Below the pieces are notes generated by a model. It saw only the letters and a list, made by a program, of their open reading frames with translations, was not told the origin of the DNA and made no database searches. 48,280 bases of DNA from an uncultured Planctomycetales bacterium (GTDB lineage: Bacteria; Omnitrophota; Gorgyraeia; Gygaellales; Profunditerraquicolaceae), in the NCBI GenBank assembly GCA_964593005.1, contig CAZQGT010000004.1, positions 1 to 48,280 on the forward strand. Reading direction: 5' to 3'. Positions within the stretch are counted from its first letter, which is position 1. Every line of letters begins with the position of its first letter. Positions 584 to 38,216 of the stretch are shown in pieces. A program made the translations under genes and the position numbers.

Positions 584-594
584 CTCCGCTAGCT

Positions 595-903: not shown

Positions 904-962
904 GGTTTATTTAGAAAAGTCCTTACGAGCGCAGCGAGTAAGGGTTAATTCAACACAAATAC

Positions 963-2089: not shown

Positions 2090-2207
2090 ATTCTTCGTAG
2101 AAAAATCTTTAATTAAACGCAAAAAATCCTTATAGCTAGATAAAGAAAGTTTCCTATAACCGTTAAGCTTATAGAATAGCGGTAAGTTTAAGTAAAGAAG
2201 AAACGTA

Positions 2208-2257
2208 TTTTCCACAGGTAAAAAACACCCCAAGATAACCCATTGTCTTCCACAGGT
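2208..2257 (+). promoter_or_regulatory. Two DnaA-box-like sites (TTTTCCACA 2208-2216; TCTTCCACA 2246-2254)
   Basis: The first matches TTWTNCACA exactly and the second has one mismatch. Both sit in a repeated TTCCACAGGT. Confidence 0.4.
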
Positions 2258-2283
2258 TTAGGGATACTTACGTAAGATTGACA

Positions 2284-2311
2284 AGTTAACATAAGATATA
2301 TTATAGGAAGT
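2284..2311 (-). other. Chromosome dimer resolution site dif (XerC/XerD)
   Basis: The minus strand reads ACTTCCTATAA-TATATC-TTATGTTAACT, an 11-6-11 layout closely matching Bacillus-type dif (ACTTCCTAGAA-TATATA-TTATGTAAACT). It is intergenic and lies exactly where gene orientation converges. Confidence 0.88.
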
Positions 2312-2393
2312 ACACCTTTGGGTCAAAATAGGCTAAAATAGCCTGAAAGTAACTTGTTGGATAAGATTTTAGTATGGTTTTTAAGGGTTTGAT

Positions 2394-2741
2394 TTAGGCG
2401 GTTTGCTGTTTCTCTACAGTATTCTGATTAGTGTCTTGGCGAGTACTGATTATATATTGGCCGCCTTGTATTCTAATTGCAGATCCGGTAGTTATTCCCT
2501 TGGCTATTAGGCTGTGTGCTTTTCTTAGGATCCGGCTAAAGGTTTGTTGTGATATACGCATAGATTTAGCTGCCTCTTTCTGGGCTAAACCCTGGTAATC
2601 TGCCAGCCTTAAGGCCTCAAATTCGTCAATTTTAAGCTCTACCTCATCAGGCCTCCCCGGCTTGCCCCTTGGGCTAAATTGACTGATTTTAGGGTCAATC
2701 TTGACTATTCTGTATTTTCCCGGTCTTCCTCGTGGGCGCAT
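2394..2741 (-). CDS. DUF134-family HTH DNA-binding protein
   Basis: MRPRGRP..R, DEFEALRLADYQGL.Q.EAA..M.IS..TF.RIL..A..IA...I.I.GG signature. Confidence 0.88.
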   Translation of the reverse strand: MRPRGRPGKYRIVKIDPKISQFSPRGKPGRPDEVELKIDEFEALRLADYQGLAQKEAAKSMRISQQTFSRILRKAHSLIAKGITTGSAIRIQGGQYIISTRQDTNQNTVEKQQTA

Positions 2742-2772
2742 TTACTTAGACTTACCTACGTTTAACGCCGGT

Positions 2773-2834
2773 TTTATTATGAGTACCTACTCGCAATAAA
2801 TCTGTATTTATTATGAGTACTTACTTATAAATAG
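2773..2834. promoter_or_regulatory. Two tandem palindromic operators TTAT(G/A)AGTA-N2-TACT(C/T)..AA upstream of the DUF134 gene
   Basis: TTTATTATGAGTA-CC-TACTCGCAATAAA (2773-2800) and TTTATTATGAGTA-CT-TACTTATAAATAG (2807-2834), 34 bp apart with identical 13-bp left arms. Confidence 0.65.
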
Positions 2835-2844
2835 GCGTTTTTTA

Positions 2845-2870
2845 GGGCCTGTTTTGTGTTTAACAGGCCC
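2845..2870. terminator. Hairpin downstream of the ParA-CBM48 operon
   Basis: GGGCCTGTT-N8-AACAGGCCC 9-bp stem just after the stop at 2876. The U-tail on the minus strand is poor. Confidence 0.5.
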
Positions 2871-2875
2871 CAGGT

Positions 2876-3295
2876 TTATACTTTATAAACTTTATCCCCT
2901 TGCCTGACTCTGGAGCTTACCAGGAGCCCTATTTCATCGCCTTTCTTAGCTCTTGAGATATCTATCCGGTCTATCTGCATTGAGCTTATAATTTGAACCA
3001 GGTCCGTGGTGTGCCCCATTATCTTCACTGTGTTTCCTATGTTTAATGGTTTTTTTAGCTTGATTACTGCTGCTTGAACATGTGGGAAATAATGTGTAAT
3101 TAAGCCCACAAGATTGCCTTCTTGTTTAGCCGGTTTTTTCCCTGCGGGTTTAGCTCTTTTTACGGCTGGTTTACGTTTTTTTAAGGCAGGTTTTTTTCTT
3201 ACTATTTTTTTCTTAATTGGTCGTTTTTTTGGCGTTTTCTTTGTTGTTTTCTTAGCCGCCTTCTTGACTTTCTTCCCCTTTTTCTTCAAAGCCAT
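2876..3295 (-). CDS. Lys-rich (histone H1-like) N-terminus fused to an EF-Tu domain II-like / U32 peptidase C-terminal-like beta-barrel
   Basis: About 58 aa of K/A/P repeats, then G.ITHYF....AVI.L...L.IG..V.I.G.TTD..Q.I.SMQID...I..A..GDEIG..V..RVR.GD.VY. Strong RBS (AAGGAGGTG). Confidence 0.8.
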   Translation of the reverse strand: MALKKKGKKVKKAAKKTTKKTPKKRPIKKKIVRKKPALKKRKPAVKRAKPAGKKPAKQEGNLVGLITHYFPHVQAAVIKLKKPLNIGNTVKIMGHTTDLVQIISSMQIDRIDISRAKKGDEIGLLVSSRVRQGDKVYKV

Positions 3296-3319
3296 AGCGA
3301 CACCTCCTTATAGGATTTT

Positions 3320-3646
3320 CTAAAGGATAACTTTCTCAGATATTTCGGTTATTACCGGTATACGGCAGTATATCCCAAGTGCTGCCTGCATAATACCCCA
3401 TATGGAGATTAAAAGGAATACCGCATAACCGAAAACTCCGATTAACCAGCCTAATAACGGTATAATTGATAGTATAAAAGCTGCAACTTCCATAACAAAA
3501 AGAACTAAACCCTGCTTGGCATGGTAAAGGGCGAATTTATTATCTTTTTTTAAGGCCAGGGTTATGATACAAAGGAAAGAAGCATAAGAAATTACAGCGA
3601 AGAATTTGCCTTCGCGGACTATATCTTCTTCAAAAGTTTGTGCCAT
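3320..3646 (-). CDS. Small membrane protein (DUF4870/Tic20-like)
   Basis: A.ISY...KDNKFALYHAKQGLVLF...IP.LGW...GI.QA..G...RIP pattern with 3 hydrophobic segments. The start was moved to the ATG at 3646 (GAGG RBS). Confidence 0.8.
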   Translation of the reverse strand: MAQTFEEDIVREGKFFAVISYASFLCIITLALKKDNKFALYHAKQGLVLFVMEVAAFILSIIPLLGWLIGVFGYAVFLLISIWGIMQAALGIYCRIPVITEISEKVIL

Positions 3647-3653
3647 AGTTTCC

Positions 3654-4748
3654 TCAGGTTTTAATCTCAAGCAGTGAGTCCATGGTCCCGTAAGGATTAA
3701 CCTGCTTTAGCGGGTTGTTCGGGTCTTCGGACCAGTTTCCATCAATCACAAAGCGGTAACGGTATTTTCCGCTGTTAAGGTTTATTCTTTTACTCCAAGA
3801 CCCGTTATTTTGTTCCATACGGCTGTTTTCATCCAGCTTCCAGTTATTAAATTCGCCGGCCAGATAAACTTCTTTTGCTTCAGGCGCCTTAACTGTAAGG
3901 GTGGTTTCATTTAACTTAGGTAAGGTTTCTTTCAAGATCTCATTCATCCTTTTTTCCAGTGTTTTTTCAGCAGCAGCCTCTCTGAAAGAGGGATTTTCCT
4001 GGGTAATTATTTCACGTGAAAGGCTGAAATAATCTTTTGCCCCGCGGCAGTATTTGTCGTAGGTAAAGACATTTAAGCCCTCATTCTGCGCTTCCTTTAG
4101 TTTTACATTTACATGTATAATATTTGAGAACATTTTTTCTTGGTAGTCAGCCTTAATTTTGTCCAGCATTTTAAAAGAGTGCTGCAGGCGGGAGTCAAAA
4201 TTAGTAACTAATACGCGGAAGCCTACATTGTGGTTTAACCTTGTGTTGACCAGCTCAATAATGCTGGTTAACTGGCTTAATCCTTCAAGAGAAAATCTGC
4301 TGGCTTCAACGGGAATAATGATTTCATTGGCTGAACGGATAGCGTTAATCGTCAGTATTCCCAGATTCGGCGGGCAATCAATCAGTATATAGTCATAGTT
4401 ATTTTTGAAGTTATTCAGGGTTTCGTAAAGCCGGCTTTCACGGCCGATTTCTCCGCTTAATTCCTGCTCCAGGGTGCTTAATATCAGGCTGGATGGCGCG
4501 ATATCAAAATTTTCACCCAGGTTCTGAATGATTTCGTCTAACCGGCATTTCTTATGAGTAATTTTAGAAAGCACATTATATATGCTTAAATCTGATTTAA
4601 TATTAAGGCCGCTGGTTGCGTGTGCTTGCGGGTCAAGGTCAATAAGCAGTACTTTGCGGTTATTCGCCGCCAGGGCAGCCGCTAAATTTATGGAAGTTGT
4701 TGTTTTGCCGCATCCGCCTTTTTGATTAGCGATTGATATAATACGCAT
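3654..4748 (-). CDS. ParA/Soj-family ATPase fused to a C-terminal AMPK-beta-type glycogen-binding domain (CBM48)
   Basis: Deviant Walker A KGGCGKTT, DLDPQ and DCPP. The C-terminal ~85 aa read APEAKEVYLAGEFNNW...W...L..GKYRYRFVIDGNW..DPNNP...NPYG. Confidence 0.92.
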   Translation of the reverse strand: MRIISIANQKGGCGKTTTSINLAAALAANNRKVLLIDLDPQAHATSGLNIKSDLSIYNVLSKITHKKCRLDEIIQNLGENFDIAPSSLILSTLEQELSGEIGRESRLYETLNNFKNNYDYILIDCPPNLGILTINAIRSANEIIIPVEASRFSLEGLSQLTSIIELVNTRLNHNVGFRVLVTNFDSRLQHSFKMLDKIKADYQEKMFSNIIHVNVKLKEAQNEGLNVFTYDKYCRGAKDYFSLSREIITQENPSFREAAAEKTLEKRMNEILKETLPKLNETTLTVKAPEAKEVYLAGEFNNWKLDENSRMEQNNGSWSKRINLNSGKYRYRFVIDGNWSEDPNNPLKQVNPYGTMDSLLEIKT

Positions 4749-4773
4749 GAGCGCTTCCTCCTTAAGAAATAGT

Positions 4774-5346
4774 TTATTTAGTTACCTTAATATTATCTAT
4801 ATAGACAATCCCTGATTTTTCTTTAGCGTTCCATTCCTCAACGCTAAAAGACAGGATTTTCATTTGTTCCCAATTATTTATTTTTGCAAAACGGGTTAAA
4901 TCAACCTGATGGTTTGTCCATTTGGCCGGAATGTCTTTTACATAAACTTCCGCTTTTTCGTTGAAACGGTTGATGAATTCAATTTTTAAAGCAATAGTAT
5001 CTTTAGGGTTAACTTTTCTAGCCGCAAAACAGAGGGTTTTGTATTTTGAAAGGTTTAATTGCTTGAGCTCAAGCGAAAAAGTTTCTTTTTTAGCAGGATC
5101 AAAGTTGAAATTCAATTTTGCCGTGTCTTGGAATAAAAACAGGGAAATTTGAGCGTTTTGGTTTCGGTAATTAAGATGAGAATACGCTACCCCGCTGCCC
5201 AAACCTAAAACCAGGAGTAATCCGACGAGGATTATTTTGCGGATTGGTTTCGGAGATGACTTTGATTTACGTTTTCTCTTTGATGATTTAGAAGAGGCAT
5301 CCAGGTAAATATTCGCCAGATGCTCGTAGATTTCTTTCTTATCCAT
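4774..5346 (-). CDS. Single-pass membrane protein with a galactose-binding-like/CBM11-like beta-sandwich domain
   Basis: Basic N-terminal tail and one TM helix (IILVGLLLVLGLGSGVAY), then NLSKYKTL.F..R...LKIEF...W....VDL..F...W.....F.......SGIVYIDNI. Confidence 0.7.
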   Translation of the reverse strand: MDKKEIYEHLANIYLDASSKSSKRKRKSKSSPKPIRKIILVGLLLVLGLGSGVAYSHLNYRNQNAQISLFLFQDTAKLNFNFDPAKKETFSLELKQLNLSKYKTLCFAARKVNPKDTIALKIEFINRFNEKAEVYVKDIPAKWTNHQVDLTRFAKINNWEQMKILSFSVEEWNAKEKSGIVYIDNIKVTK

Positions 5347-5356
5347 ATGAAATTAT

Positions 5357-5385
5357 TTTATAACACAAAAGTCAAGCTGTGTCAA
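5357..5385 (-). promoter_or_regulatory. Sigma70-type promoter for the CBM-ParA/CBM48-DUF4870-Lys-rich operon
   Basis: TTGACA (5385-5380, overlapping the GH57 stop), 17 bp spacer, extended -10 TGtTATAAA. This would give a nearly leaderless mRNA. Confidence 0.6.
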
Positions 5386-6917
5386 GGGTTTAGATATGTT
5401 GGGGTATCCTGATTAATAAGTTTATAGAAATTAGTCAGGTGTATCCGAAACAGTCGGTCAAATGAGCCATCAGGGTCTTCTCCGGCCCACCAAAACCAAT
5501 CGCTCCCTTCTAAAATATACATTTGTTTTAAAGCCAGTTCATTTATCGGTTCTTTAGTTTTTTCTAATGCCTTTCTGGCGTCAGCTAGCCATTCCCAACA
5601 TTTAACTTTACTGGGATTTCCAATCCATTTGCCGAATTCACCGTAAATCCATGAGCCGGCGCTTAAACGTTTAATTTCATTTTCCGCGGGGTTGAGTTTC
5701 AAGTATTCACTTACCGTGGTTGTCTTAATAAAATCGCTATCCGAAAGACGCTGATAAAATAACTCCAGGAAATCATGGCCGTCATTACGGAAAAACTCCC
5801 AGGCGTTTTCTCCGTCCATAGCAATGGTAACCAGGGTATCTTTTCCCTTGAAAGCCCTATCTATATTCTCCAAATGGCCTATGAAATTATTTACCGCATC
5901 ATTTTCTTTCATCCCGTGGTAATTAAAACCGATTAAATCCGAAAGGTTGCGGTCACGAAAAACGATATTTAACTCTTTCCCCTTTCTTTTTAATAAATGA
6001 GGCTGATATAAAAGCCGGGTATTACGTTTCTTAATTTTTAGTGATTTAAAAAGGATTGCTTCATCCGTAACTATCCATTTTATTCCGGATTCAATTATAA
6101 ATGGAAGGATGTGCTCGCTGACTGCCTCTTCCGATGGCCACATACCTTCTGGGGCTCCGTCAAACTTTTGTTTATAGAATTCCACTGCGCTATCGATATG
6201 CCTCTTTGCATCAAGCGGGTAGTTAAATTCTTTCTTGGGTAGCGTGGTCTTTTTATTTGCTTCCTTGGCAATATTGGTGCTACATAATAAAGGTAAAATT
6301 GGATGATAATACGGCGTAACGCTGATTTCTATCTGGTTATTTTGTTTATAAAGACGGTATGCCGGGATAATTTCTTTTAATATGAGCAGCTGTTTCTCTA
6401 AGACAATATGTTTATCTTCTTCGCTAAAGAACCTTTCCTTGGCGGATATTTTCTTTAACTCCGGGATATTTTGCCTGAATGATGGGTCTATCCAGGCTAA
6501 GTTGAAATAGAGTTGCAGGTCAAGGTAGTCCTGGGGAGAAAACTCCTGTCCGCGCTGCCTTTTAAGGTATAGCTCATAATAACGCGGAAAAGTTGCGATT
6601 ACCCTCTCTCTGTTTATGGAAAAAAAATTCTGCAGGATGAAATCTTTATCGGATTTGGTTAATTCCTGAGCGGGTTTCTTGGTTAGTTCGCTGAATTTGT
6701 CTTTTACCAGGCCATTGTTATAGTCTTCCACCTGTTCGAATAAAGACGGGACAACATTAAAGGTTTGTTTAATTTTGGGGAATTTCTCTAAGATCTGCAC
6801 CATATCCAGGTAATCTTTAACCCCGTGCAGCCTTACCCAGGGCAAGTTACTCTCCTGTGTCAGGAGGTTCTTGTAATACGGCTGGTGCATATGAAAGATA
6901 AAGGCAAGATTTAGCAT
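5382..6917 (-). CDS. Glycoside hydrolase family 57 (amylopullulanase-like)
   Basis: HMHQP, LPWVRLH..KDY, TPYYHPILPLL, nucleophile region WPSEEAVS, acid/base region MDGENAWE, EGSDWFWW. Confidence 0.92.
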   Translation of the reverse strand: MLNLAFIFHMHQPYYKNLLTQESNLPWVRLHGVKDYLDMVQILEKFPKIKQTFNVVPSLFEQVEDYNNGLVKDKFSELTKKPAQELTKSDKDFILQNFFSINRERVIATFPRYYELYLKRQRGQEFSPQDYLDLQLYFNLAWIDPSFRQNIPELKKISAKERFFSEEDKHIVLEKQLLILKEIIPAYRLYKQNNQIEISVTPYYHPILPLLCSTNIAKEANKKTTLPKKEFNYPLDAKRHIDSAVEFYKQKFDGAPEGMWPSEEAVSEHILPFIIESGIKWIVTDEAILFKSLKIKKRNTRLLYQPHLLKRKGKELNIVFRDRNLSDLIGFNYHGMKENDAVNNFIGHLENIDRAFKGKDTLVTIAMDGENAWEFFRNDGHDFLELFYQRLSDSDFIKTTTVSEYLKLNPAENEIKRLSAGSWIYGEFGKWIGNPSKVKCWEWLADARKALEKTKEPINELALKQMYILEGSDWFWWAGEDPDGSFDRLFRIHLTNFYKLINQDTPTYLNP

Positions 6918-6930
6918 AATTTTTACTATT

Positions 6931-6967
6931 AAAAAACCCTCGGAGGATTTACATCCCCCGAGGGTTT
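6931..6967 (-). terminator. Rho-independent terminator of the porin gene
   Basis: The minus strand reads AAACCCTCGGGGGATGTAAATCCTCCGAGGGTTTTTT: a GC stem plus U-tail. Confidence 0.85.
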
Positions 6968-6988
6968 GGTATTTCTACATAAGCTGTA

Positions 6989-8311
6989 TTAGAATGTTAC
7001 TTTCATTGAACCGATTAACTGAGTTGCAGCCTTCTCATTATCTGAGAGAGCATTGCCAGCTTTAAACATACCACCGGTTAAGGCAAACTGTACATCTTCA
7101 GTATAATCATAGGCAGCGGTAATATCCAGGGCATCGCCAAGGTGTTTTTTACCAGTGTAGGTGGCGCCGCTTAGATAAGTACTGCTTCCATCATAAGAAG
7201 ATGGGCTGTTAAAAGTTGATCCAGGATGTTTTTCAGCTACATCATAGTAACCGTAGACAGCTGATAATGTAACATCTTCAACTGGTTTACAGCTAGCTTT
7301 TAGATTCAAAGCGCTCATATTGGTAAAAGGTAAAAGCGCATATACGATGTTGTTAAGCTGTTGATTGTAGAACATGGAATCCCATCCTTCATTTCTGGTG
7401 CCACTAGATTCGCCACCAGAAAGATATGTCCAGGAAGCTCCGATCTTAGGAGTCATTTTTACTTTAGCAAAGGTGTAATCTGCCATTGCCTGAATAGCCC
7501 AAGCATCGTGTTTTTTCTGTCCAGCTGTAGCAGTGTTTTTTCCAAACTGATAAGCAGCTTCTAATGAAGCTGTTAAATTCTCAATCGGTGTGGTAGAAAC
7601 TAAACCGCCGATTGTGTTAACCTTATCTTTTTTGTCACCGCTTGTAGTGTTATCTTTCTTTATCCAGTAATAACCGGAAACATTAACCTTTGAATTTAAT
7701 GTGTAGGTAGCGTTAACACCAGCTAAGCTGATTGTGTCTCTGTCAGTTGTTGTGCTTTGTTTAACTTGAGCATAAACCAAATCCACAACTAATGGATCAT
7801 AGTCTAAGGTAGCGCGTATTGCATCAAATGCGGCTCTCTTAGAAAGATCAGTAGGTATGCTGGTTGTTCCACTAGCTGCACCTGATTTTCCAATTACCAA
7901 ACTATTGCCAAAGCTAATTTCCTGGCGACCAATAGTTAAGCTCAAAGGAGAATACAGGAATTCTTTTAAGGTAACATAAGCAAGATCTAAATCAATGTTG
8001 GTATTATTGTTGCCAGACTCGGTGTCATTCTGCCCGTTCCAGATTCTTTCATTGATTAATCTTACAGTAGCCATAACATTATCAGTAAGATCTGCGTCAA
8101 TACGCACCCTTGTTTGAGTCATTAGAAAAGTTTGTTTCAGGGCGCTTTTGTCACCATCGGTTTGATATCTTAAACCAAAATGGCTTCTTGCTACACCACT
8201 TGCTGTGATGTCACCACTTACCTTTACATTCTGAACTTCGGCGTAGACAGGGCTAAATACTAACCCGGCTACCAAAGCAAGCGCTAATACTATAATCAAG
8301 CGTTTACCCAT
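6989..8311 (-). CDS. Outer-membrane beta-barrel porin (alginate-export-family-like)
   Basis: Signal peptide (..VYA-EV), alternating amphipathic beta strands, LTIGRQEI.FG and FDAIR motifs, C-terminal Phe (MKVTF). Strong RBS. Confidence 0.82.
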   Translation of the reverse strand: MGKRLIIVLALALVAGLVFSPVYAEVQNVKVSGDITASGVARSHFGLRYQTDGDKSALKQTFLMTQTRVRIDADLTDNVMATVRLINERIWNGQNDTESGNNNTNIDLDLAYVTLKEFLYSPLSLTIGRQEISFGNSLVIGKSGAASGTTSIPTDLSKRAAFDAIRATLDYDPLVVDLVYAQVKQSTTTDRDTISLAGVNATYTLNSKVNVSGYYWIKKDNTTSGDKKDKVNTIGGLVSTTPIENLTASLEAAYQFGKNTATAGQKKHDAWAIQAMADYTFAKVKMTPKIGASWTYLSGGESSGTRNEGWDSMFYNQQLNNIVYALLPFTNMSALNLKASCKPVEDVTLSAVYGYYDVAEKHPGSTFNSPSSYDGSSTYLSGATYTGKKHLGDALDITAAYDYTEDVQFALTGGMFKAGNALSDNEKAATQLIGSMKVTF

Positions 8312-8410
8312 GTTTTTACTCCTCCTTTTTTGTTAACTGTGATAGATATATAGTTAACTAGGCTAATAAACATTATCGCCTAGGATAATTTCTTCAAGTT
8401 ACTTATAAAC

Positions 8411-8438
8411 ATTTTACATATAACTCTTTAATTGTCAA
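8411..8438 (-). promoter_or_regulatory. Sigma70 promoter of the porin gene
   Basis: TTGACA-16 bp-TAAAAT on the minus strand. Confidence 0.7.
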
Positions 8439-8471
8439 GAGTTTTTTACCTTGCCGGTGACCTTGCCGAAT

Positions 8472-8522
8472 TAATAGGGACAGCGACCATTATCCAAACG
8501 ATAATGGTCGCTGTCCCTATTA
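8472..8522. repeat. Palindromic element copy 1 (23-bp perfect inverted repeat)
   Basis: TAATAGGGACAGCGACCATTATC-caaac-GATAATGGTCGCTGTCCCTATTA, nearly identical to 25937-25986. Confidence 0.85.
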
Positions 8523-8523
8523 T

Positions 8524-8994
8524 CTACTTTACCGGGGATTTAGCTTTTTTACCCGCAGTTTGTGATTTTGGGCCTAAGGAAATGATTAAAATAATACTGC
8601 TTCCCTTTGGTTCAATAGTAATAATACAGCTCTCGTTCTCCCTTTCAAAGTTCAAAAGCCTCTGGCCGTATTCTACAATATTCACCAGGTTCCAGTTATA
8701 CATAGCCATTTGTTCTTTGTAAAAACTCACTACCTGATCAGGGCTATTCTTACCCTGGTATTTCAATACCCCCACGCGCACGCCGGAACTCTCAAAAGAA
8801 TATGACTGGTTGGGCAGGTTTCTTAAACCTACAGGCACAGGGATATCGCTGAATTTAAGAATCGCCTGCGGTTCAAGCATTCCGGGATTAGCTGATTTGG
8901 CGTCGCTGTTTCCTGAGAGGCTGGCGCATCCTGTAAGAACTGTTGCCAGTAAACAGAATGCAGCGGGTAGTAAAAAAAGTTTTAAAAATTTCAT
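8524..8994 (-). CDS. Lipoprotein of unknown function
   Basis: Signal peptide with lipobox LTGC and a basic C-terminus. Confidence 0.8.
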   Translation of the reverse strand: MKFLKLFLLPAAFCLLATVLTGCASLSGNSDAKSANPGMLEPQAILKFSDIPVPVGLRNLPNQSYSFESSGVRVGVLKYQGKNSPDQVVSFYKEQMAMYNWNLVNIVEYGQRLLNFERENESCIITIEPKGSSIILIISLGPKSQTAGKKAKSPVK

Positions 8995-9644
8995 CTTACC
9001 TCCTTCTTGGCTAAGAAAATTCCGACATCTCCATAAATTTTGTTAATCTCATCTTGAGTCAATCCTGAGTCCAGCCCTGTTTTGATTAATTCCTCGGGTG
9101 AAATAATATCTTCCGGGCAGTGGCTGTCATTATTTAAGATTAATTTTGCCTCAAATTTTCTTGCTTGTTTTACAACATAAGAATTAGTTTGCTTGTGCCC
9201 ATGCCGGCTGGTAACTTCGAGGAATACCCCCCGTTCTTTTGCCAGTTTTGTGTCTTCGTCAGAAATTAATCCCGGATGGGCCAGGATATCAATATCAGCT
9301 AACAAGGCGGAATGGTTGGTATTTTTTGCCACCGGCTCAACGCAAGTTTCTCCGTGAGCAATAATAATTTTAATCCCTTCCCTCCTTGCCAGGGCGGCTA
9401 AAGGTTTAAATTGTTCAGGAGGAAGATGAGTTAATTCAATCCCCGGTAATACCTTGATTTGTGAGTTTTTAGGCCAGCGTTTGCAGAATTCAACAATCGC
9501 TTTGGCAGCCTGCTTGATATTGCTATAATCAGCATGGTCAGTTATGGCGATTACCTTATAACCTTTGTCCTGATAGCGCACGGCTACTTCTGAAGGAAGC
9601 AGGTCTCCGTCGCTTAAGAATGTGTGTGCGTGTAGATTATACAT
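8991..9644 (-). CDS. PHP-domain metallo-phosphoesterase (histidinol-phosphatase-like)
   Basis: HAHT..SDG, AITDH, HGET, DILAHPG, DSH metal ligands. Confidence 0.88.
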   Translation of the reverse strand: MYNLHAHTFLSDGDLLPSEVAVRYQDKGYKVIAITDHADYSNIKQAAKAIVEFCKRWPKNSQIKVLPGIELTHLPPEQFKPLAALARREGIKIIIAHGETCVEPVAKNTNHSALLADIDILAHPGLISDEDTKLAKERGVFLEVTSRHGHKQTNSYVVKQARKFEAKLILNNDSHCPEDIISPEELIKTGLDSGLTQDEINKIYGDVGIFLAKKEVR

Positions 9645-31025: not shown

Positions 31026-32186
31026 TTATTTACCCATTCCCACTCTTTGTCCTACCTGAAAGATTTTTCCTTCAGTTTGGATTGATGGGGCGATAATAAT
31101 TTCTACGTCATGCATTTCTCTTAAAGTTGACGCGCCTAAGGATCCCATAGAAGTTTTTAACGCTCCTAAAAGATTTTGTGATCCGTCATCTACTTTTGCC
31201 GGGCCAAGCAAAATATCTTTCAGCGTTCCGGTTGTACCGACTTGAATACGCGTGCCGCGAGGCAGATTAACATGAGAAGTAGCCATTCCCCAATGGAAAC
31301 CTCTTCCCGGGGCTTCTTTTGCCCTGGCAAAGCTTGAACCGATCATTACCGCGTCAGCTCCGCAGGCGAATGCCTTGCAGATATCTCCGCCGCGGTTCAT
31401 CCCGCCGTCAGTGATAATGGAGACATATTTGCCTGTACGCTTAAAATAGAAGTCGCGCGCTCCTGCAGCATCAACTGTTGCGGTAACTTGCGGCACGCCG
31501 ATACCCAGGACGCCCCGCGTAGTACATGCGGCTCCCGGACCGACACCGATAAGCAGGCCGCTGGCTCCGGTATCCATAAGTTCTAATGTCGTTTCGTAAG
31601 TTACGCAATTTCCCAGGATAACCGGGATCTTTATATTTTTACAGAACTTTATCAAGTCAAGTGTTTTATACTGCGTAGAAAGGTGTTTGATTGTAGTTAC
31701 GGTAGATTGAATAACGAATATATCGGCTCCGGCGGAAATAGCTAATTTTGAGAACTTGTCGGCATTAGCCGGGATGCAACTGACTATTGCCGTTGCTTTG
31801 GCCTTTTTAATTTCAGCAACTCTTTTTGTAATTAACCGTTCTTTTATCGGGGTAGTATAAACTGTTTGGATAAGCTCAGTTGCTTTTTGAGGGGTGGCTC
31901 TTGCTATATCCTCCAGGACTTCATCGGGGTTTTCGTAGCGGGTCTGGATACCATCAAGGTTTAAGACTGCCAGGCCGCCTAATTTTGACATTTCTATCGC
32001 GAATTTGACATTTACAACTCCATCCATGGCTGCGGCAAGAATAGGTATTTTAATCTTTTTTCCCATGAATTCAAAGCTGGTATCAACTTCATTTGGATTT
32101 ACGGTTTGAGCTCCGGGAACCAGGGCAATTTCATCAAAACCATAGCATCTTCTTGCGCGCCTTCCTATACCTATCCATTCTGCCAT
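31026..32186 (-). CDS. guaB: GuaB3-family IMP dehydrogenase-related protein (no CBS domains)
   Basis: IG.GR.ARR.YGFDEIALVPG, GVGPGAACTTR, DGG...GGDICKA.ACGADAVMIGS, HWGMAT...LPRGTRI. Confidence 0.88.
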   Translation of the reverse strand: MAEWIGIGRRARRCYGFDEIALVPGAQTVNPNEVDTSFEFMGKKIKIPILAAAMDGVVNVKFAIEMSKLGGLAVLNLDGIQTRYENPDEVLEDIARATPQKATELIQTVYTTPIKERLITKRVAEIKKAKATAIVSCIPANADKFSKLAISAGADIFVIQSTVTTIKHLSTQYKTLDLIKFCKNIKIPVILGNCVTYETTLELMDTGASGLLIGVGPGAACTTRGVLGIGVPQVTATVDAAGARDFYFKRTGKYVSIITDGGMNRGGDICKAFACGADAVMIGSSFARAKEAPGRGFHWGMATSHVNLPRGTRIQVGTTGTLKDILLGPAKVDDGSQNLLGALKTSMGSLGASTLREMHDVEIIIAPSIQTEGKIFQVGQRVGMGK

Positions 32187-32322: not shown

Positions 32323-32367
32323 GAAACGCCCTTTTCTCAAATAATAAAGATAGAAAAAGGGCGTTTC
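32323..32367. terminator. Hairpin downstream of the 1892-aa gene
   Basis: GAAACGCCCTTTT...AAAAGGGCGTTTC 13-bp inverted repeat, 10 bp after the stop. Confidence 0.6.
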
Positions 32368-32376
32368 TTTTATTAA

Positions 32377-35300
32377 TTAACGGACGCTATCTGCGATTAC
32401 AATTGCCTCTTTAATATTTGCATCTGTAGGAATAGCCATATCTTCTTCCAGTTTGCAAATACGCATTAAACAGCTGACTAGTTCTTCCTGATGATTGGCT
32501 AATTCTTGTTTATGGTAACAGGCTCCTATCAGTTCTTTAATTCTTTCACTGCTGGGAGCAATGCCGTTGTCAACCATTTGAGATATTTCAATCAGTTCTT
32601 TGTTGATGTTAATTTGAGTAAGCGTGGCAGCCGGAGGTAAAGAAAAGGTTAATCCTTCAAAACTTCCTACTGCTTGGATATTCATGGGTAGGATACGGAA
32701 GTCAATACCGCCTCGTTTTGACTTTTCAGTGTTTATTGGTGAACTGGAAGTAGATTCAAAGAGTTGCTGCGCGCGGTTAAAAATACCAAATGCAGTTATT
32801 AATCCGTCAAAAGTAGAAATGTCAGGTAATGTTACTATTGCGACATCGCGGAAAAATCTCTTTTTATATGTTTCTCCCTGATAATTTATAGCGTCAGTCG
32901 TAACATCCCCGCTCAATGAGCGAAATTCCGCCTTTAAAAATTGCCTGCGTTCTTCATCGGGATAAGCCCCATCAAGATAGTCATTAGCAAGGCCATAGGT
33001 GCTGATTTTGCTTTCAGATTGCACAACTGCTTCGTAAGATTTCACAAAATCTACAAGCAGAGTAAAGACAGCATCATTACCATCAAGGCGGCCCTGGAAA
33101 TTGGCATGCTGGTCACGAGTTCCGATACCATAATCAATGCTTTGCAGCATTTCTCCAAGAATATCTGCGTTAGGGTAAGCAGTATAAAAAACAGGAGAAA
33201 CTACTTTTTTCTTGCCTCGGGCGATCAGCATAAGGGTGGCTAATTTTCTAGCAGCTTCCTCCATCTGGTTGTCAGATAGTTTACCTTTTCCATAACCACG
33301 GATTGATTTATACAATTCATATATCTGTTCATCATTTTTTTCGATAAGAAGTTGAATTTGGATCCTTTTGTCATTGTTTTCTTCTATAGCAAGTTTCATT
33401 TTTGCAGCAAGTTCTTCGTTTTTATGTTTAAGATTATTAATTTCATTAATGGTAGAAACTAATTTAGCAAAAGATATGGAATCTTCGGCGCTTACCGAAA
33501 TATTCTCATCTGCTTGAACTAAATTTATTGCTGTTTCTTGAAGCAACTTATTTTTTTCTTCGGCAGAGAGATTCGTTTCTCTTTCCTGATCAGTTAAGTT
33601 TATTTCTTCATCAAGAATATATTCCCCGTTTTTAATACGTTTTTCAACATCCATATATCTGGCTCTGGTTGCCTCATCGGATTTATCAAGGGTGCTCAAA
33701 ACACTTACCAATACTCCTTTGGCTAGCTCTACCATGGGTTGATTCTGGGGATCCCTTAACCACCAAAAATTAGGCTTATTTTCTAAAACCGATTTATTCA
33801 TTAATGCGGCGCCTACTACTGGTATATTTAAGGTTATGTTGTTTTCTGCAACCAGATCAGCTAAGCTTAACAGGCCATAACGCACGGTAAACTCCTGAAA
33901 CCAAAGGGCAAATTTAGCGTTGGCAAGAGGCGATATCTCTTCTTTAAAATAGCGTATTACAGGAACATCTTGCGGGACTGCCATAGGCGCAAATCCCTTT
34001 TGCTCTACCACTATAACTAAGGGGGCTTTACCGGTTTGTTGTTTTATTTGTCCAATCTTTCTATTCATTTCTTCTTGTCCTGCGCTGACTACTACCCAGA
34101 TACCTTGTCCGTCTTTACCGTTGCTTTCCGGGAATAATTGTTCTTTCTGTAGAGCTTCGGAAGTGGCATTGGAACTACGCACAGATACCAGCATAACCGG
34201 AGGATTAAGCTTACGTGTTAAAATAGCAGCACGCAACGCGCTATTTTTTTCCGGGTTGTTTCCGTCCGTCCCCCAATAATTACTTGCTTGTTTTTGCAGT
34301 CCTTCAGTTATTTGAGTAATATTCAATCCCTGAAATGCTTGTGTAACGGATCCGGATTCACAGTTTTCTGTGAATCTTCCGCCAGTATATTCGGAGAAAT
34401 CAAAGACAGAAATATTAGCTATTTTTAATTCCTTCATTCCCAAGGCAAAGGCGTAAAGCCGGCTGGCATCCGGATTTAAGGACGTAGTAAATACTATTCT
34501 TTCTAAAACCTTGCCTATAGCCAGGCGCTCTTTTTCATTAAATTGCTGGTTAAAATCATCGACAGGAATTCCTTTAAAAAGCGCGCTCTTAGATTTTCCA
34601 TTATTAAAATCTTTTAGGAATGCGCTAAATCTTACTGATAATGCCTGCGCGTCTTTAGGAGTCATTCCCTCCGCTATTCCCATAAGCCTCAGGAATTCAT
34701 TTAAACTTTCCTGATATATAGTTAAAGGTTCATCGGTACTTCCAGATTTAGAACTTGCGTGTAAGACTATTTCATAAATGTTATATCCTGAGTTTAAAAG
34801 ATTCTGGAAAAGCTGTTTAATGCTTACTCCTATCCTGTCTAAAACTATGATTTTTGCTTCTTTATCTTCTCCCCAGTATTCTGCTTGGACACTGTTGGAT
34901 TTTCCTTGGCCGCCTATGCCAATATGCAGCATAACTTTAGCGCCATTATTTTTAACCTGTGAAACCCATTCTGTTATAGGCTTGCGGTTGTCCATTCTCA
35001 AAGCGCCATTGGGATCTTTATATCCAAAACGCGAGTTAAGCTGACCCGTAGGTTCAGGATATTGTTTTATTTCTCCGGTAAGCTCATAATTAGCTGCTAA
35101 TTTAACCGGCAAACTATTGAAAACTTCCGGATCGGTTTCTTCAAAACCTTCAAAGGCGATCGTTGCATCTTGATATCTCATCGGTGGATTTACCGGCGAA
35201 CTGGAAGTATTGCCACTGACAATATTATCTAGCGTATTCTGTACACTAATATAATCGTTGGAAAACGCAGTTGTGGCATTCTTAAGCAGAATGGCGCCTA

Positions 35301-38055
35301 TCCGGGTTATATTGGCGTTACCTTTTGAGATCAAATCCATAATTTCAAGGCTTGAATCGTAACCGGATTCAATGGTTTTAGCTATACTGCCATCGTCATT
35401 TTTAGCAATGCCGTTTTCAATTAAATATTTTATAGTTGGGGTATAGGGAAGAGTATTTACGATAAGCGTACCCTGCAACGGATGAACATATATCCCCGCG
35501 GGATAAGCAGCAGCAATTTTTTCAGTAATGACACCTTTTTTAAGCATATCCGCGCCTTTTGATCCGGTAGAAGCAAGCAGGAATTCCTGAGGGTTAACTT
35601 CTAGACCAATGGCATTGGCATCTGTTTTTAATTTATTCCAAGTTGGATTTTTATCACTGAAGGAATTCTTAAATATTTCATTGTATGCCTTTATGGCAAT
35701 AGCGTTAGCTACCTGGCCATGGGCGTTTTCAGGTGTGAGATTGTTCTCTTCAAAATATACATCCCAGCGGGATATAAAAAAGCTGGCTACAGAATATACA
35801 CGGTTAAACTCATCTTTGCTTAGCCTGCCTTCTTTTACGTTAATTAAGCCGCGTTGTAAACCGCGGATATATGCGTCAACAACCTTTTGATAATGCTCTG
35901 GGGTAAAGATCAACGTTACGTTGACATTCCGTCCGCGGGAGATTACTTCTTCTATTATCTTGTATCCGATGTGATTATCAATACCATCTGCATCAGAGCT
36001 CAAAGCGACTTTGATCATCATATGTGTTGGGTTAATGTCTGTCCAAAGTAGCGCCTCTTTTAATGCTTCCGCGACGTCTGCATTATTAACCGCAGGGTTA
36101 AGTTCAACACTGAATTTGGCGTCTTTTATGCCAGCTTTCTCAAAAATTTCCAACGCGGTTTTAGCTAATTCACTGACAAGCTGATAGTAGATAGTCTTCT
36201 TATCTAAACCTTGAGCTGCCAATTCTTTTGCCTTATCAATTACTCGTTGGTCGCTAAAATAGGCCTTGATCAGAGAAGGATTGGTAGTAACCCCGTTTAT
36301 GCCATGGGTGCGTACTAAGTTCTCAAATTCTCCGGAAAGCAGCATCTCAAAAGTCAGGCCGTCAAGCCAGATCCTCTGGTTGATGTCGGCGTAAACACGT
36401 AAGGATGTGACCGGTTGGATAGAAATTGGACTTGAAGAAGACGGCTCAAGGAATACCTGAAAATCATCCTCGGTAGACTGACCCAGTTCTTTACTGACCT
36501 CCCCATTGGCAACTGCTGTCAAGCTGAGAGTGTTATTATTAGTATTATGAGTTATTTTAATATTGGCATGGAATCCTTTTCTTTTATATTCCCATTCGTT
36601 GGAATTTGTAGGATAGATGTTCTCTCCAGATAGCCATAGCGAAATGTTTTGTCCCAAAACTTCATTTTTCGTTTTTGCCTCAAAAAGCAGCCATCTTTTA
36701 TCGCTATCAGAGAAATATTGATAGACAGCTATTCGTGCTTTTCCTTTTGCCATTTCCGCTGGAATAGGGCTGATTGTGAGAGAATTATTACTATGGTTTC
36801 TGGAAGTAAACATACCCAAACTTTGAGATATCATTGGGCTTGAGCTGATTCCCTGGGAAAGCGAGATAGGGTTATTGATAGTTGCTGTGCCAAAGAAAGG
36901 CACCAGGCCGTTTTTGGTGGCCGCAGCCATAAATACGGGGTTAGAGCTGGAACCGGTGAACCCGGCAATTATTGGGCTGCTTCCCTTGTTTTGCGAGGTA
37001 ATGTTCATATTGGCGCTGAATTCAAGGCCGCCGCTGAAGTAGCTTCTGATCGATGGTCCGGATAATGCGTTTATGTTAGTTTTAAGGTTATATTCACCAT
37101 TTTTAAAGGATGTTTGATATTGTTCGAAATAGGTATTTTTTGACCAGGTTTCTTTAGAGGTAAGTCCCTGGAGATTGGATTTATTAATATAGGAAGCATA
37201 TAAACCACCCTTGCCATAGAACCTTGATTTAAACCAGCGGGCCAGAATTAATGAATAGTAAACCTGTCTAAGGGCAGCATAGTTTTTATCATTGTTGACC
37301 TTTTTTACTAATTCTGGAAGGATAAATTCACGGATAAGTTGAGATGAGTATTCGTTGAGTTCTTTTGCGCGGTTGTCTTCAAAGTTATAATTTGCGGATT
37401 CTTTTAAGTGGTCTTGCTCAAGCAACACTTTTAAGGTTGCCTTATAAATATACGCACTGTTGCCTTCGGCTTCGCGTATGATGATTTCACCGGGCACAAT
37501 CCAGGGCCGGGTTAATGTCGGAATATTTACATTTTGAGTGCCATAGATCTGGTTTGCTCTTTCATAAAGTTTATCCCAATATAATTTTCCAAGCGGGGAA
37601 TCAGGTGTAGTGAGGCTAGCCGTGTCTTTTTTTAGCTGGACATCCGCTTCAAGGAATACTTTACCGATATCGGTTTTAGCCAGTTCATCCTGAATAATAT
37701 TATCTGCTGAATCAGGACGCAGGTTTACCCAGAAGCTATCATCAGGAAGAGTCACCCCAATAAGGAAATATTTTAAAAGTTCTTTTCCTGATTCTTCAAG
37801 TTTTAAATCTTTTAAGTCCTTCAGGTCCCCTTTATCCAAAAGGAGCTGGATGTTATTTGAGGTATTATCATAAGAAAGATACCTTAAGTGCGGCAGGCGA
37901 AGCTTGTTTTGTGTAATGTTTGGCCCAAGACTGGCAAAATGCGAGCTAAGGTTAAGTTCAGCTGCTACTTGAGCAAAACCAGTTTGAGTGAAGAAAAGGA
38001 TGAAAGATAGAAACAGCGATAAGACCTTACGGGTGAGATTTACTTTGCTTGCCAT
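32377..38055 (-). CDS. Large exported modular protein: N-terminal domain / unknown domain / transaldolase / phosphoglucose-isomerase-like / GGIDF C-terminal domain, separated by SSP linkers
   Basis: Signal peptide (RKVLSLFLSFILFFTQTGFA). Transaldolase motifs: IWLD, GVTTNPS, MMIKV, NVNVTLIF, SVASFFISR.D, ASTGSK. PGI/SIS motifs: IGIGG, SKSGST.E, GGRF, EQLF.ES.GK, NQP.VE.AK, DQH. Confidence 0.85.
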   Translation of the reverse strand: MASKVNLTRKVLSLFLSFILFFTQTGFAQVAAELNLSSHFASLGPNITQNKLRLPHLRYLSYDNTSNNIQLLLDKGDLKDLKDLKLEESGKELLKYFLIGVTLPDDSFWVNLRPDSADNIIQDELAKTDIGKVFLEADVQLKKDTASLTTPDSPLGKLYWDKLYERANQIYGTQNVNIPTLTRPWIVPGEIIIREAEGNSAYIYKATLKVLLEQDHLKESANYNFEDNRAKELNEYSSQLIREFILPELVKKVNNDKNYAALRQVYYSLILARWFKSRFYGKGGLYASYINKSNLQGLTSKETWSKNTYFEQYQTSFKNGEYNLKTNINALSGPSIRSYFSGGLEFSANMNITSQNKGSSPIIAGFTGSSSNPVFMAAATKNGLVPFFGTATINNPISLSQGISSSPMISQSLGMFTSRNHSNNSLTISPIPAEMAKGKARIAVYQYFSDSDKRWLLFEAKTKNEVLGQNISLWLSGENIYPTNSNEWEYKRKGFHANIKITHNTNNNTLSLTAVANGEVSKELGQSTEDDFQVFLEPSSSSPISIQPVTSLRVYADINQRIWLDGLTFEMLLSGEFENLVRTHGINGVTTNPSLIKAYFSDQRVIDKAKELAAQGLDKKTIYYQLVSELAKTALEIFEKAGIKDAKFSVELNPAVNNADVAEALKEALLWTDINPTHMMIKVALSSDADGIDNHIGYKIIEEVISRGRNVNVTLIFTPEHYQKVVDAYIRGLQRGLINVKEGRLSKDEFNRVYSVASFFISRWDVYFEENNLTPENAHGQVANAIAIKAYNEIFKNSFSDKNPTWNKLKTDANAIGLEVNPQEFLLASTGSKGADMLKKGVITEKIAAAYPAGIYVHPLQGTLIVNTLPYTPTIKYLIENGIAKNDDGSIAKTIESGYDSSLEIMDLISKGNANITRIGAILLKNATTAFSNDYISVQNTLDNIVSGNTSSSPVNPPMRYQDATIAFEGFEETDPEVFNSLPVKLAANYELTGEIKQYPEPTGQLNSRFGYKDPNGALRMDNRKPITEWVSQVKNNGAKVMLHIGIGGQGKSNSVQAEYWGEDKEAKIIVLDRIGVSIKQLFQNLLNSGYNIYEIVLHASSKSGSTDEPLTIYQESLNEFLRLMGIAEGMTPKDAQALSVRFSAFLKDFNNGKSKSALFKGIPVDDFNQQFNEKERLAIGKVLERIVFTTSLNPDASRLYAFALGMKELKIANISVFDFSEYTGGRFTENCESGSVTQAFQGLNITQITEGLQKQASNYWGTDGNNPEKNSALRAAILTRKLNPPVMLVSVRSSNATSEALQKEQLFPESNGKDGQGIWVVVSAGQEEMNRKIGQIKQQTGKAPLVIVVEQKGFAPMAVPQDVPVIRYFKEEISPLANAKFALWFQEFTVRYGLLSLADLVAENNITLNIPVVGAALMNKSVLENKPNFWWLRDPQNQPMVELAKGVLVSVLSTLDKSDEATRARYMDVEKRIKNGEYILDEEINLTDQERETNLSAEEKNKLLQETAINLVQADENISVSAEDSISFAKLVSTINEINNLKHKNEELAAKMKLAIEENNDKRIQIQLLIEKNDEQIYELYKSIRGYGKGKLSDNQMEEAARKLATLMLIARGKKKVVSPVFYTAYPNADILGEMLQSIDYGIGTRDQHANFQGRLDGNDAVFTLLVDFVKSYEAVVQSESKISTYGLANDYLDGAYPDEERRQFLKAEFRSLSGDVTTDAINYQGETYKKRFFRDVAIVTLPDISTFDGLITAFGIFNRAQQLFESTSSSPINTEKSKRGGIDFRILPMNIQAVGSFEGLTFSLPPAATLTQININKELIEISQMVDNGIAPSSERIKELIGACYHKQELANHQEELVSCLMRICKLEEDMAIPTDANIKEAIVIADSVR

Positions 38056-38188: not shown

Positions 38189-38216
38189 AGTTTAACATAT
38201 TATTAGGATTTGTCAA
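38189..38216 (-). promoter_or_regulatory. Sigma70 promoter of the 1892-aa gene
   Basis: TTGACA-16 bp-TAAACT with an extended TG. Confidence 0.6.

Follow-up and report, generated by a model that had tools for sequence, protein, structure and literature searches.

The gene described here (P0001) occupies positions 32377-38055 on the minus strand of a 48,280-nucleotide stretch of DNA (hereafter the window; contig CAZQGT010000004.1, positions 1 to 48,280, GenBank assembly GCA_964593005.1) from an uncultured Omnitrophota bacterium, and encodes a protein of 1,892 amino acids (aa) in a single open frame of 1892 codons plus stop. With a probability of roughly 60 %, we consider it to be an exported "head-cargo-tail" carrier protein that belongs to a very large family, so far encountered in Omnitrophota alone. 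Several observations support this reading, the following three among them. First, the protein is built from a signal peptide, a head domain, a series of modules with S-S-P-[IVLM] joints, and a tail. Second, head and tail are constant over thousands of proteins, while the middle is variable and often consists of complete enzymes of central carbon metabolism. Third, whole modules have been replaced or inserted exactly at the SSP joints in close relatives. The open frame, the SSP motifs, the head motifs and the start of the tail had all been picked out in a first-pass annotation of the same DNA and were recovered in translation and alignment. Unless stated otherwise, coordinates below refer to the minus strand of the window.

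According to the carrier reading, the Sec system would move the protein across the inner membrane and the signal would be cut at GFA|Q. The tail would then insert a GGIDFRxLP strand between two strands of a groove in the head, with its helices packing on helices of the head, and the resulting clasp would close the chain into a loop or join molecules head to tail. The hexose-phosphate enzymes, that is, transaldolase (TAL) and phosphoglucose isomerase (PGI) here and TAL plus phosphoglucomutase (PGM) or TAL, PGM and a cupin PGI in sister genes, may work beyond the cytoplasm, either in the periplasm or on the surface of the cell. The SSP joints would serve as short inter-module linkers, and the DNA encoding them would supply microhomology, in frame, through which multi-module genes of the genome exchange modules or undergo gene conversion.

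No published description of the head, the GGIDF tail, the SSP joints or the docking was found in the literature, searches with the motif strings included. We class the protein as a compact, capped variant of the multi-enzyme proteins known from Omnitrophota and as a member of an undescribed family; to this picture, the present analysis adds the docking prediction, the PGI/PGM exchange located exactly at the joints, the finding that cytoplasmic copies make the modules redundant, and a codon-level signature of the joints.

Constant ends and variable cargo

A word-based search of longer proteins with the head returned 722 matches. Head identity is 57-100 % among the 120 listed, and every organism label given for them reads Candidatus Omnitrophota/Omnitrophica, except for one that says "bacterium" only. 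When 1.84 billion cluster representatives were scanned exhaustively with phmmer, 7,465 head proteins emerged at E≤1e-3, 5,785 of them at ≤1e-30; among the 150 best listed of these 7,465, the head starts at residues 1-19 throughout and protein lengths run from 453 to 7,391 residues. The tail, searched with a profile hidden Markov model (HMM), matches 157 of 203 head proteins examined, ends at most 30 aa from the C-terminus in 156 of the 157 and never occurs twice, and the 46 head proteins without it are mostly short or flagged as partial. Related genomes contain at least one match in 23 of 31 cases (1 to 18 matches each), and full genes fetched from relatives carry the head in 20/20 and the tail in 19/20 instances.

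Between these ends, the cargo of the tail-bearing proteins among the 203 measures 69-6,898 aa (median 1,064). Pfam domains were recognized in 56 of the 120 listed matches, and 24 of the 120 have domains of glycolysis, gluconeogenesis or the pentose-phosphate pathway. Enzymes found in these 120 proteins include TAL, PGM, cupin PGI, fructose-bisphosphate (FBP) aldolase/phosphatase, GAPDH, PGK, phosphoglycerate mutase, enolase, PPDK and sugar kinases; other cargo comprises adenylate and guanylate kinases, NUDIX, HD, GNAT, methyltransferases, a protein kinase, DnaJ, MutS, M48, HATPase_c, HEAT and TPR. In P0178, a protein of 537 aa from a public collection, only 69 residues separate head from tail, which makes it a natural "empty chassis"; an ESM Atlas look-up of this cargo-less protein gave its own Omnitrophota clusters only, with low recognition.

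That conserved N- and C-terminal domains form a chassis for interchangeable cargo had been proposed in the first-pass annotation, and the comparison of family members bears this out. In the same genome, a paralog of 2,936 aa (P0002, G000 C41:179-8989, plus strand) matches our protein over its first ~350 residues (58 % identity) and over its last ~125 (33 %), with nothing shared between; head and tail are common, and the cargo between the SSP motifs is different. It consists of TPR, HATPase_c, two methyltransferase-like modules and a kinase-like region, with eight SSP[ILVM] motifs. Right after the first of its joints (aa 554), P0002 also contains a stretch resembling a signal peptide or a membrane span (aa 559-577; Kyte-Doolittle (KD) hydropathy 1.71), which would represent either a captured exported protein with its own signal or a chain that re-enters the membrane.

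The SSP joints as borders of exchange

In our protein, SSP[IMV] occurs five times (aa 359, 405, 541, 952 and 1771), compared with a mean of 0.066 in 20,000 composition-preserving shuffles (maximum 3; none reached 5). Joint 1 (G-SSP-I, aa 359-362, 36970-36981), joint 2 (S-SSP-M, aa 405-408, 36832-36843), joint 3 (SS-SSP-I, aa 541-544, 36424-36435), joint 4 (TS-SSP-V, aa 952-955, 35191-35202) and joint 5 (TS-SSP-I, aa 1771-1774, 32734-32745) begin with their first serine codons at 36981, 36843, 36435, 35202 and 32745, 5-8 nt from where the first-pass annotation had placed them. Its assignment of the five motifs to domain boundaries holds, with the TAL match confined between the joints at 541 and 952. 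Recognizable domains lie between the joints, since the matches to TAL, TAL/PGI and glucose-6-phosphate (G6P) isomerase models fall there.

The most instructive relative is a near-ortholog (P0004) that is 95 % identical in the head, 83 % over aa 1-955 and 85 % in the tail, and in which a phosphoglucomutase (PF02878/79/80) replaces the PGI-like module. P0004 keeps joint 1, runs parallel to our protein as far as SSSPV at 952 and rejoins it at the SSSP that precedes the tail (SSP1771), so that joints 4 and 5 are the left and right breakpoints of the PGI/PGM swap. An ortholog in a congeneric genome (G007), 69 % identical over the full length, retains all five joints as well as the TAL and PGI-like cargo and carries an additional module of ~150 residues between two SSP motifs right before the tail, at joint 5. 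Elsewhere, the PGI-like module (~818 residues) constitutes the sole cargo of P0035 (48 % identity, 99 % coverage), and other clade members have the TAL module in different places; in our map of segments cut at SSP, P0035, which lacks the motif, had its head, PGI and tail fused in one cluster, and only the other clusters were used. Two sister genes carry TAL, PGM and cupin PGI (P0124) or PGM alone (P0125). As the clade keeps its hexose-phosphate theme while exchanging non-homologous enzymes, the enzyme activity itself appears to be under selection.

At the DNA level, 34 of the 100 SSP[ILVM] motifs of the genome (open reading frames (ORFs) of at least 100 codons) sit in six multi-module ORFs, namely the gene described here, the paralog P0002 on contig C41 and contig-limited fragments on contigs C57, C59 and C84. 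The S-S pair of these joints is written AGY-TCN in 23 of 31 cases. This spelling is found for 15 of the 70 remaining S-S pairs in these ORFs (p 1e-6) and for 390 of 1903 in the rest of the genome (p 3e-10), and the joint consensus in this genome reads TCC AGT TCT CCG GTN. The first-pass annotation had suggested that SSP marks either processing sites or recombination joints. The breakpoints and the conserved codons are consistent with the latter; a general processing role fails, because 12 of 20 genes from relatives lack the motif altogether. SSP is a lineage-specific joint and not a universal processing site, although it could additionally be a protease or O-glycosylation site.

The fragments on C57 (L006:3-9716), C59 (L007, frames 3-4943 and 4757-9520) and C84 (L008) have 7, 5+6 and 3 SSP[ILVM] motifs, respectively, and TPR, PEP-utilizers_C, HATPase_c_2 and methyltransferase domains, with neither head nor tail inside the fragments; the overlapping frames of C59 may be one gene with a frameshift or assembly error. 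On contig C121 of genome G016 (L061), two head-tail genes of 3,113 and 1,979 codons stand in tandem, with ~30 nt from the end of the first tail to the next head.

Head and tail as a predicted clasp

The head (aa 49-345, 37021-37911) is predicted to be an alpha/beta domain whose groove is lined by the motifs FWVNL (108-112), LEADxQLKKD (135-144), RPWIVPGE (183-190) and LRQVYYSLILAxWFK (262-276). Throughout the alignment, FWVNLRPD, LEADVQLKKD, RPWIVPGE, LRQVYYSLILARWFK and YFSGG in the head and GGIDFR at the start of the tail form invariant or nearly invariant columns. AlphaFold2 (AF2), given a 24-sequence alignment, modeled the head with a predicted local distance difference test score (pLDDT) of 82 and a predicted template modeling score (pTM) of 0.75. 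Foldseek found no fold match to this model in the PDB (best E 0.15, TM ≤0.15). The tail (aa 1775-1892, 32380-32733) consists of a linear GGIDFRILP motif (aa 1782-1790, 32686-32712) followed by a four-helix domain; its AF2 model has a pLDDT of 76, with the four helices at ~90 and the GGIDFRxLP motif disordered when modeled alone. A fold search of the tail against the PDB produced nothing significant, only generic helical-bundle noise. The G, G, I and D of the GGIDF motif are invariant in 20/20 tails, and GGID[FL] occurs once only, at the tail, in 18/20 genes of relatives.

When the head (49-345) and the tail were co-folded, the interaction score derived from aligned errors (ipSAE) came to 0.81 in all three runs, against 0.00 for the best of three controls. 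In our calibration, 58 of 80 solved complexes attained this mark, as did 2 of 110 mismatched pairs. The runs had no less than 74 % of their contacts in common, and partner pLDDT was at least 71. Contacts with the lowest error link tail residues 18-22 (GIDFR) with head residues 105-110, 134-138, 185-188 and 266-273, and lie in the head motifs FWVNL, LEAD..LK, RPWIVP and LRQVYYSLIL, so that the GGIDFRILP motif is predicted to insert into the groove of the head. Invariant columns are concentrated at this interface, both in the head (13 of 25 among the 46 interface residues, 3.9 expected, p 8e-6) and in the tail (5 of 8 among 30 interface residues, 1.9 expected, p 0.018). Since no solved fold resembles either half, the docking result is not a memory of a known complex. 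Head and tail are therefore predicted to be the two halves of one clasp-like unit between which the cargo is inserted.

The end of the head (37021-37035, aa 341-345 and on to 347) displays a near-invariant S-G-G-[ILV]-x-F, which reads YFSGGLEF here and YFSGGIDF in divergent members; this GGIDF-like motif could be an internal pseudo-ligand of the same groove.

Several functional assignments were considered and rejected. Neither proteases nor hydrolases of the Tiki/TraB/ChaN/erythromycin-esterase type were among the Foldseek matches listed for the head in the PDB, and the head has no conserved histidine. For the tail, a known sorting or secretion domain was discarded, as the PDB fold search gave helical-bundle noise only. 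A C39 peptidase cutting "GG|IDF" was likewise dismissed: peptidases of this type recognize double-glycine leaders with a consensus before the two glycines, and the residues preceding GG vary among the tails and do not resemble such a leader. The genome's one C39 domain noted (Peptidase_C39, 92184-92429) lies near the start of a 1,258-codon frame at the end of another contig (G000:C1:91653-95428, plus strand), preceded by a 1,880-codon frame. This frame resembles giant Omnitrophota genes, for which West-Roberts et al. describe an N-terminus of C39 type (10.1101/2023.11.21.568195).

Cargo modules of the gene

Right behind the head, a clade-specific segment (aa 363-404, IAGFTGSS..PVF.AAATKNGL.PFFG, 36844-36969) occurs in 7 of 224 sequences examined, in each case in this position. 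It is followed by a mobile module of ~130 aa (aa 409-540, 36436-36831) that has no Pfam match and recurs in P0123 (1621-1736), twice in P0125, and in P0006.

The third module (aa 545-951, 35203-36423) is a transaldolase of the long TAL type, as judged from its match to PF00923 (TAL_FSA, aa 562-939, 3.1e-33, 115.8 bits vs a cut-off of 27) and from the alignment to PDB 3r5e. The lysine of its MMIKV motif, which lines up with MIKIP of 3r5e, is retained, and so are SVEL, TTNPS, NVTLIF and SFFISRWD. We take this residue to be the Schiff-base lysine and the motifs to be catalytic. By its sequence, the module keeps its catalytic motifs and looks functional.

The PGI-like (SIS-type) module (aa 956-1770, 32746-35190) is divergent in its C-terminal part. 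The NCBIfam model NF007080 for bifunctional TAL/PGI matches across joint 4 (aa 551-1120, E 8.7e-43), with 146.3 bits vs a cut-off of 712 and covering model positions 4-534 of 949 only, and NF010697 (G6P isomerase) matches aa 1216-1344 at 6.5e-8, below the curated cut-off. PF00342 gave no match at this locus at E≤0.01, nor did a phmmer search of the module against the PDB at the same threshold. BLASTP comparison with the genome's own PGI shows that IGIGGQG, SKSGSTDEP, GGRFTE, ESNGK and GTRDQH are kept; four of the five PGI signature motifs are retained, and the C-terminal one (QxGVExxK) is not recognizable. A relative of the module with 29 % identity, the free-standing 758-aa P0204 (labelled Chlamydiae), does carry PF00342. 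Inside the module, an insertion of ~140 residues (about aa 1470-1610, 33226-33648), charged and coiled-coil-like as judged by eye, is its least conserved part in comparison with the G007 ortholog (34-54 % identity). Pfam and NCBIfam scans of the whole protein (E≤0.1) returned TAL and PGI models only.

The same genome possesses a free-standing short TAL on contig C23 (217.7 bits) and a PGI on contig C20 (506-codon frame), and the TAL and PGI-like modules are thus extra copies.

Predicted export and proposed site of enzyme action

The N-terminus (aa 1-28, 37972-38055) resembles a Sec-type signal, with a K/R-rich n-region, a 12-residue hydrophobic core and a c-region TQTGFA followed by Q29, which suggests a cut at GFA|Q. 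The pattern is a family trait: among 198 M-started family proteins, G[FLIV][ATSG]Q occurs within 50 aa in 158 (GFAQ in 142), the hydrophobic run has a median of 12 residues (interquartile range 12-12), and the n-region has a median charge of +3 and is positive in 96 %. Our protein contains no 19-residue window at KD 1.6, the N-terminus included; together with the 12-residue core, this fits a cleaved Sec signal over a membrane anchor. On these rules of n-region charge, core length and GFA-Q, the export signal postulated in the first-pass annotation indeed appears Sec-like. The residue after the predicted cut, Q29 (37969-37971), is glutamine in 158/198 family proteins. This recalls the "Q-rule" of Bacteroidetes, whose exported proteins have pyroglutamate N-termini.

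The putative export signal and the redundancy with cytoplasmic copies suggest that the enzymes act outside the cytoplasm. A more ambitious and rather doubtful extension would be that the clasp is common to all paralogs, that the carriers ring-close or daisy-chain into an extracytoplasmic "exo-metabolon" by which ultra-small Omnitrophota living as predators or parasites carry out reactions of the glycolysis type on the cytosol of their prey, beyond their own cytoplasm, and that SSP (or equivalent) joints are in-frame recombination sites that mix the cargo. Omnitrophota are reported to be ultra-small, and to be host-dependent or predatory (10.64898/2026.06.07.730766, PMC12583861).

A number of points weigh against the carrier reading. 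The clasp is a model and not a measurement; it supports binding without showing it and does not distinguish cis from trans. Nor is the enrichment of invariant columns at the interface independent of this model, as conservation feeds both, and a near-invariant groove and motif in all paralogs would fit a shared partner in trans as well as a strongly constrained fold. Export is deduced from sequence rules. Beyond the 12/20 genes of relatives without any SSP[ILVM], the AGY-TCN bias is weaker in relatives (14/32 vs 60/235, p 0.04), and any role of the joints at the DNA level may be confined to this genome, or may stem from their common descent. Contigs of the four lake-water runs X2-X5, compared at 85 % likeness, contained no module-swap variants at any SSP site. 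Much of the family's cargo, furthermore, depends on ATP, NAD or partners from the cytoplasm (PGK, GAPDH, PPDK, adenylate and guanylate kinases, DnaJ, MutS, HATPase_c) and is for this reason hard to reconcile with an ordinary periplasm; the cofactor needs point to a cytoplasm, either that of the producer or that of a victim. The absence of a match to the ATP/ADP translocase family PF03219 in the genome carries no weight, as the control genomes gave none either. Finally, an internal hydrophobic 19-mer is present in 51 of 202 family proteins, among them P0002 (our protein has none), and such a span could set head and tail on opposite sides of the membrane.

Alternative explanations

The family's cargo, overwhelmingly of a cytoplasmic and cofactor-dependent kind, would suit the cytoplasm of another cell, and the protein might be a MARTX-like delivery polyprotein that carries its cargo into a host or prey and is cut at each SSP, with the freed enzymes rewiring the sugar-phosphate and nucleotide pools of the victim. 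The predicted export signal and the fact that the cell has TAL and PGI of its own besides the modules would agree with this, tight motif-marked linkers would suit a site-specific protease, the phylum is reported to be host-dependent or predatory (10.64898/2026.06.07.730766, PMC12583861), and West-Roberts et al. propose post-translational cleavage of giant Omnitrophota proteins (10.1101/2023.11.21.568195). On the other side, the models of head and tail revealed no protease, pore-forming or translocation fold when compared with the PDB by Foldseek, and no such Pfam or NCBIfam domain was found, so that the parallel with MARTX toxins drawn in the first-pass annotation, along with its idea of a protease or translocation fold, finds no counterpart among the domains detected. 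SSP is also absent from 12 of 20 related genes. Signal peptidase I does not cut directly before proline, and the Pro right after the serines excludes a cut of this type between S and P. The predicted head-tail clasp gives the ends another job, and no immunity-like or secretion gene adjoins the gene. Delivery is hence unsupported, and we regard it as unlikely.

It is improbable that the protein is a non-catalytic brick of the envelope or a "veil", in which enzyme folds would serve as structural or sugar-phosphate-binding units and catalysis would be irrelevant. Head-tail docking, if real, could polymerize such proteins, and repeats, HEAT and TPR for instance, make up many of the cargo modules. 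The retention of motifs aligned to catalytic positions of solved transaldolases in the TAL module and of four of five signature motifs in the PGI-like module argues against irrelevance of catalysis, as do the sister genes, whose swap of non-homologous enzymes of the same theme (SIS-type PGI vs PGM plus cupin PGI) points to selection on activity.

Even less probable is a membrane-tethered metabolon on the cytoplasmic face, where an uncleaved N-terminal anchor would hold the enzymes near their substrates and cofactors. This would be in line with cargo of cytoplasmic type, and West-Roberts et al. point out that a span missed in prediction could invert the extracellular placement predicted for glycolytic domains (10.1101/2023.11.21.568195). 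It is difficult to square with a 12-residue core that is followed by the conserved small-residue c-region GFA-Q, with the lack of any 19-residue window at membrane-helix hydropathy in our protein, and with soluble TAL and PGI already present in the genome. By the positive-inside rule, moreover, the positive n-region (median +3) would orient the chain N-in, C-out.

That the ORF is an artefact, i. e., a chimeric contig or several adjacent genes read as one, is suggested by nothing but the fragmented metagenome assembly it stems from (113 contigs, 93.65 % complete) and can practically be discounted, given a frame open for 1892 codons, an identical protein (P0003) in a public collection, a full-length ortholog with 69 % identity in another genome (G007) and independent contigs from four other lake-water runs that carry the same gene with 0-2 differences each and bridge the joints, because of which the gene is not an assembly chimera.

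Genomic context

The gene lies between groES/groEL upstream and, downstream, a gene for IMP dehydrogenase (IMPDH) that is followed by guaA (GMP synthase), in agreement with the placement between groEL and guaB given in the first-pass annotation. The IMPDH (31026-32186) is only 386 aa long; the IMPDH barrel model aligns near end to end, and the CBS subdomain is apparently missing. In the 262-nt spacer behind groEL, a promoter-like site (TTGACA-16-TAAACT, 38189-38216) is sigma-70-like with 10/12 matches and a TG, which constitutes weak evidence, as such sites are not enriched (14 found vs 16.2 expected in shuffles). A terminator-like hairpin (32323-32367, −19.9 kcal/mol, z −4.7) begins 9 nt past the stop; it has no clear U tract and was not flagged by the terminator scan, the counts of which are not above those of shuffles. 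The earlier proposal that the gene has its own promoter and terminator therefore finds weak support only, with a stable hairpin after the stop and promoter-like sites at shuffle frequency. Neither an immunity-like nor a secretion gene is found next to the gene.

In the contigs of the four lake-water runs, a single contig joint (37263 to 37427, side 30) and many loose ends (37117-37543) were found, all within the conserved core of the head. Contig depth at these ends is 25-30, as compared to 3-5 for the gene; summed over all contigs, depth at 37117-37543 rises up to 12.6, as compared to about 4-5 for the rest of the gene. The excess contigs most likely come from head paralogs of other organisms, and since the head core collects them, several other head-bearing genes or organisms apparently co-occur in those samples.

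Relation to known systems

The closest precedents are the giant proteins of the same phylum. West-Roberts et al. (2023) describe very long Omnitrophota "multi-enzyme metabolic cluster" proteins of at least 30,000 aa, for which cleavage into several products was proposed (10.1101/2023.11.21.568195), and Nielsen and Lui (2026) report giant Omnitrophota proteins, the Archaeovorins, of at least 10,000 aa (10.64898/2026.06.07.730766). These proteins share with the present family the phylum, signal peptides, strung metabolic enzymes and other modules (PGM, PPDK, aldolase, methyltransferase, HATPase_c, GNAT, NUDIX, HEAT/TPR) and glycolytic domains predicted outside the cell. They are described as having many membrane spans and C39, S8 or SecA domains; our protein, in contrast, has 1,892 aa, no hydrophobic 19-mer and no C39, S8, SecA or dockerin domain. 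A conserved head, a GGIDF tail, head-tail docking or an SSP joint do not appear in the available portions of these accounts.

Among the more distant systems, several resemble our protein in some respects and depart from it in others. MARTX toxins also have conserved ends that frame an effector array, which varies between strains by recombination; they possess glycine-rich A/B/C repeats and an internal cysteine protease domain (CPD), and use type I secretion without a Sec signal. Our protein has neither CPD nor glycine-rich repeats (Pfam/NCBIfam, E≤0.1), an apparently Sec-type N-terminus, a helical-bundle tail predicted to dock on the head, and housekeeping-type enzymes instead of toxins as cargo. 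In CdiA (VENN) and Rhs proteins (PxxxxDPxGL), a short motif and its DNA border exchanged modules as well, yet only the C-terminal tip varies, an immunity gene follows, and TPS/FHA or YD repeats are present. Here, several internal modules vary between constant ends, the next gene is guaB, and no toxin, TPS/FHA or YD domains occur. Cellulosomes likewise combine exported enzymes bearing a small docking module (dockerin) with a conserved partner module (cohesin) in multi-enzyme assemblies outside the cytoplasm; in our case, PF00404 and PF00963 have no match, both partners reside on one polypeptide, and the enzymes act on sugar phosphates rather than being glycoside hydrolases. The bifunctional TAL/PGI (NCBIfam NF007080, PRK09533) has TAL followed by PGI on one chain, just as here. 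It differs, apart from the score of 146 vs 712 bits, in the absence of head, tail, ~130-aa module and export signal, and PGM replaces PGI in P0004. Lastly, the predicted clasp is analogous to donor-strand complementation in pili and to split-domain tags, where a short extended peptide completes the sheet of another part, but has no sequence or fold relation to these systems.

Implications

Omnitrophota are widespread, uncultured and ultra-small bacteria thought to live off other cells. The gene described here is a compact and tractable member, with two recognizable enzymes and no membrane spans, of a family that is thousands strong. It offers several handles, namely a chassis whose two parts both have novel folds and are predicted to dock, exact module borders with a natural PGI/PGM swap, and a codon-level joint signature pointing to exchange of DNA; the empty chassis P0178 is a good subject for structural work. 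If the head/tail pair does bind as modeled, it would represent a natural scaffold for displaying arbitrary enzymes, and if it is true that the enzymes work outside the cytoplasm, these proteins would constitute a new organization of bacterial central metabolism.

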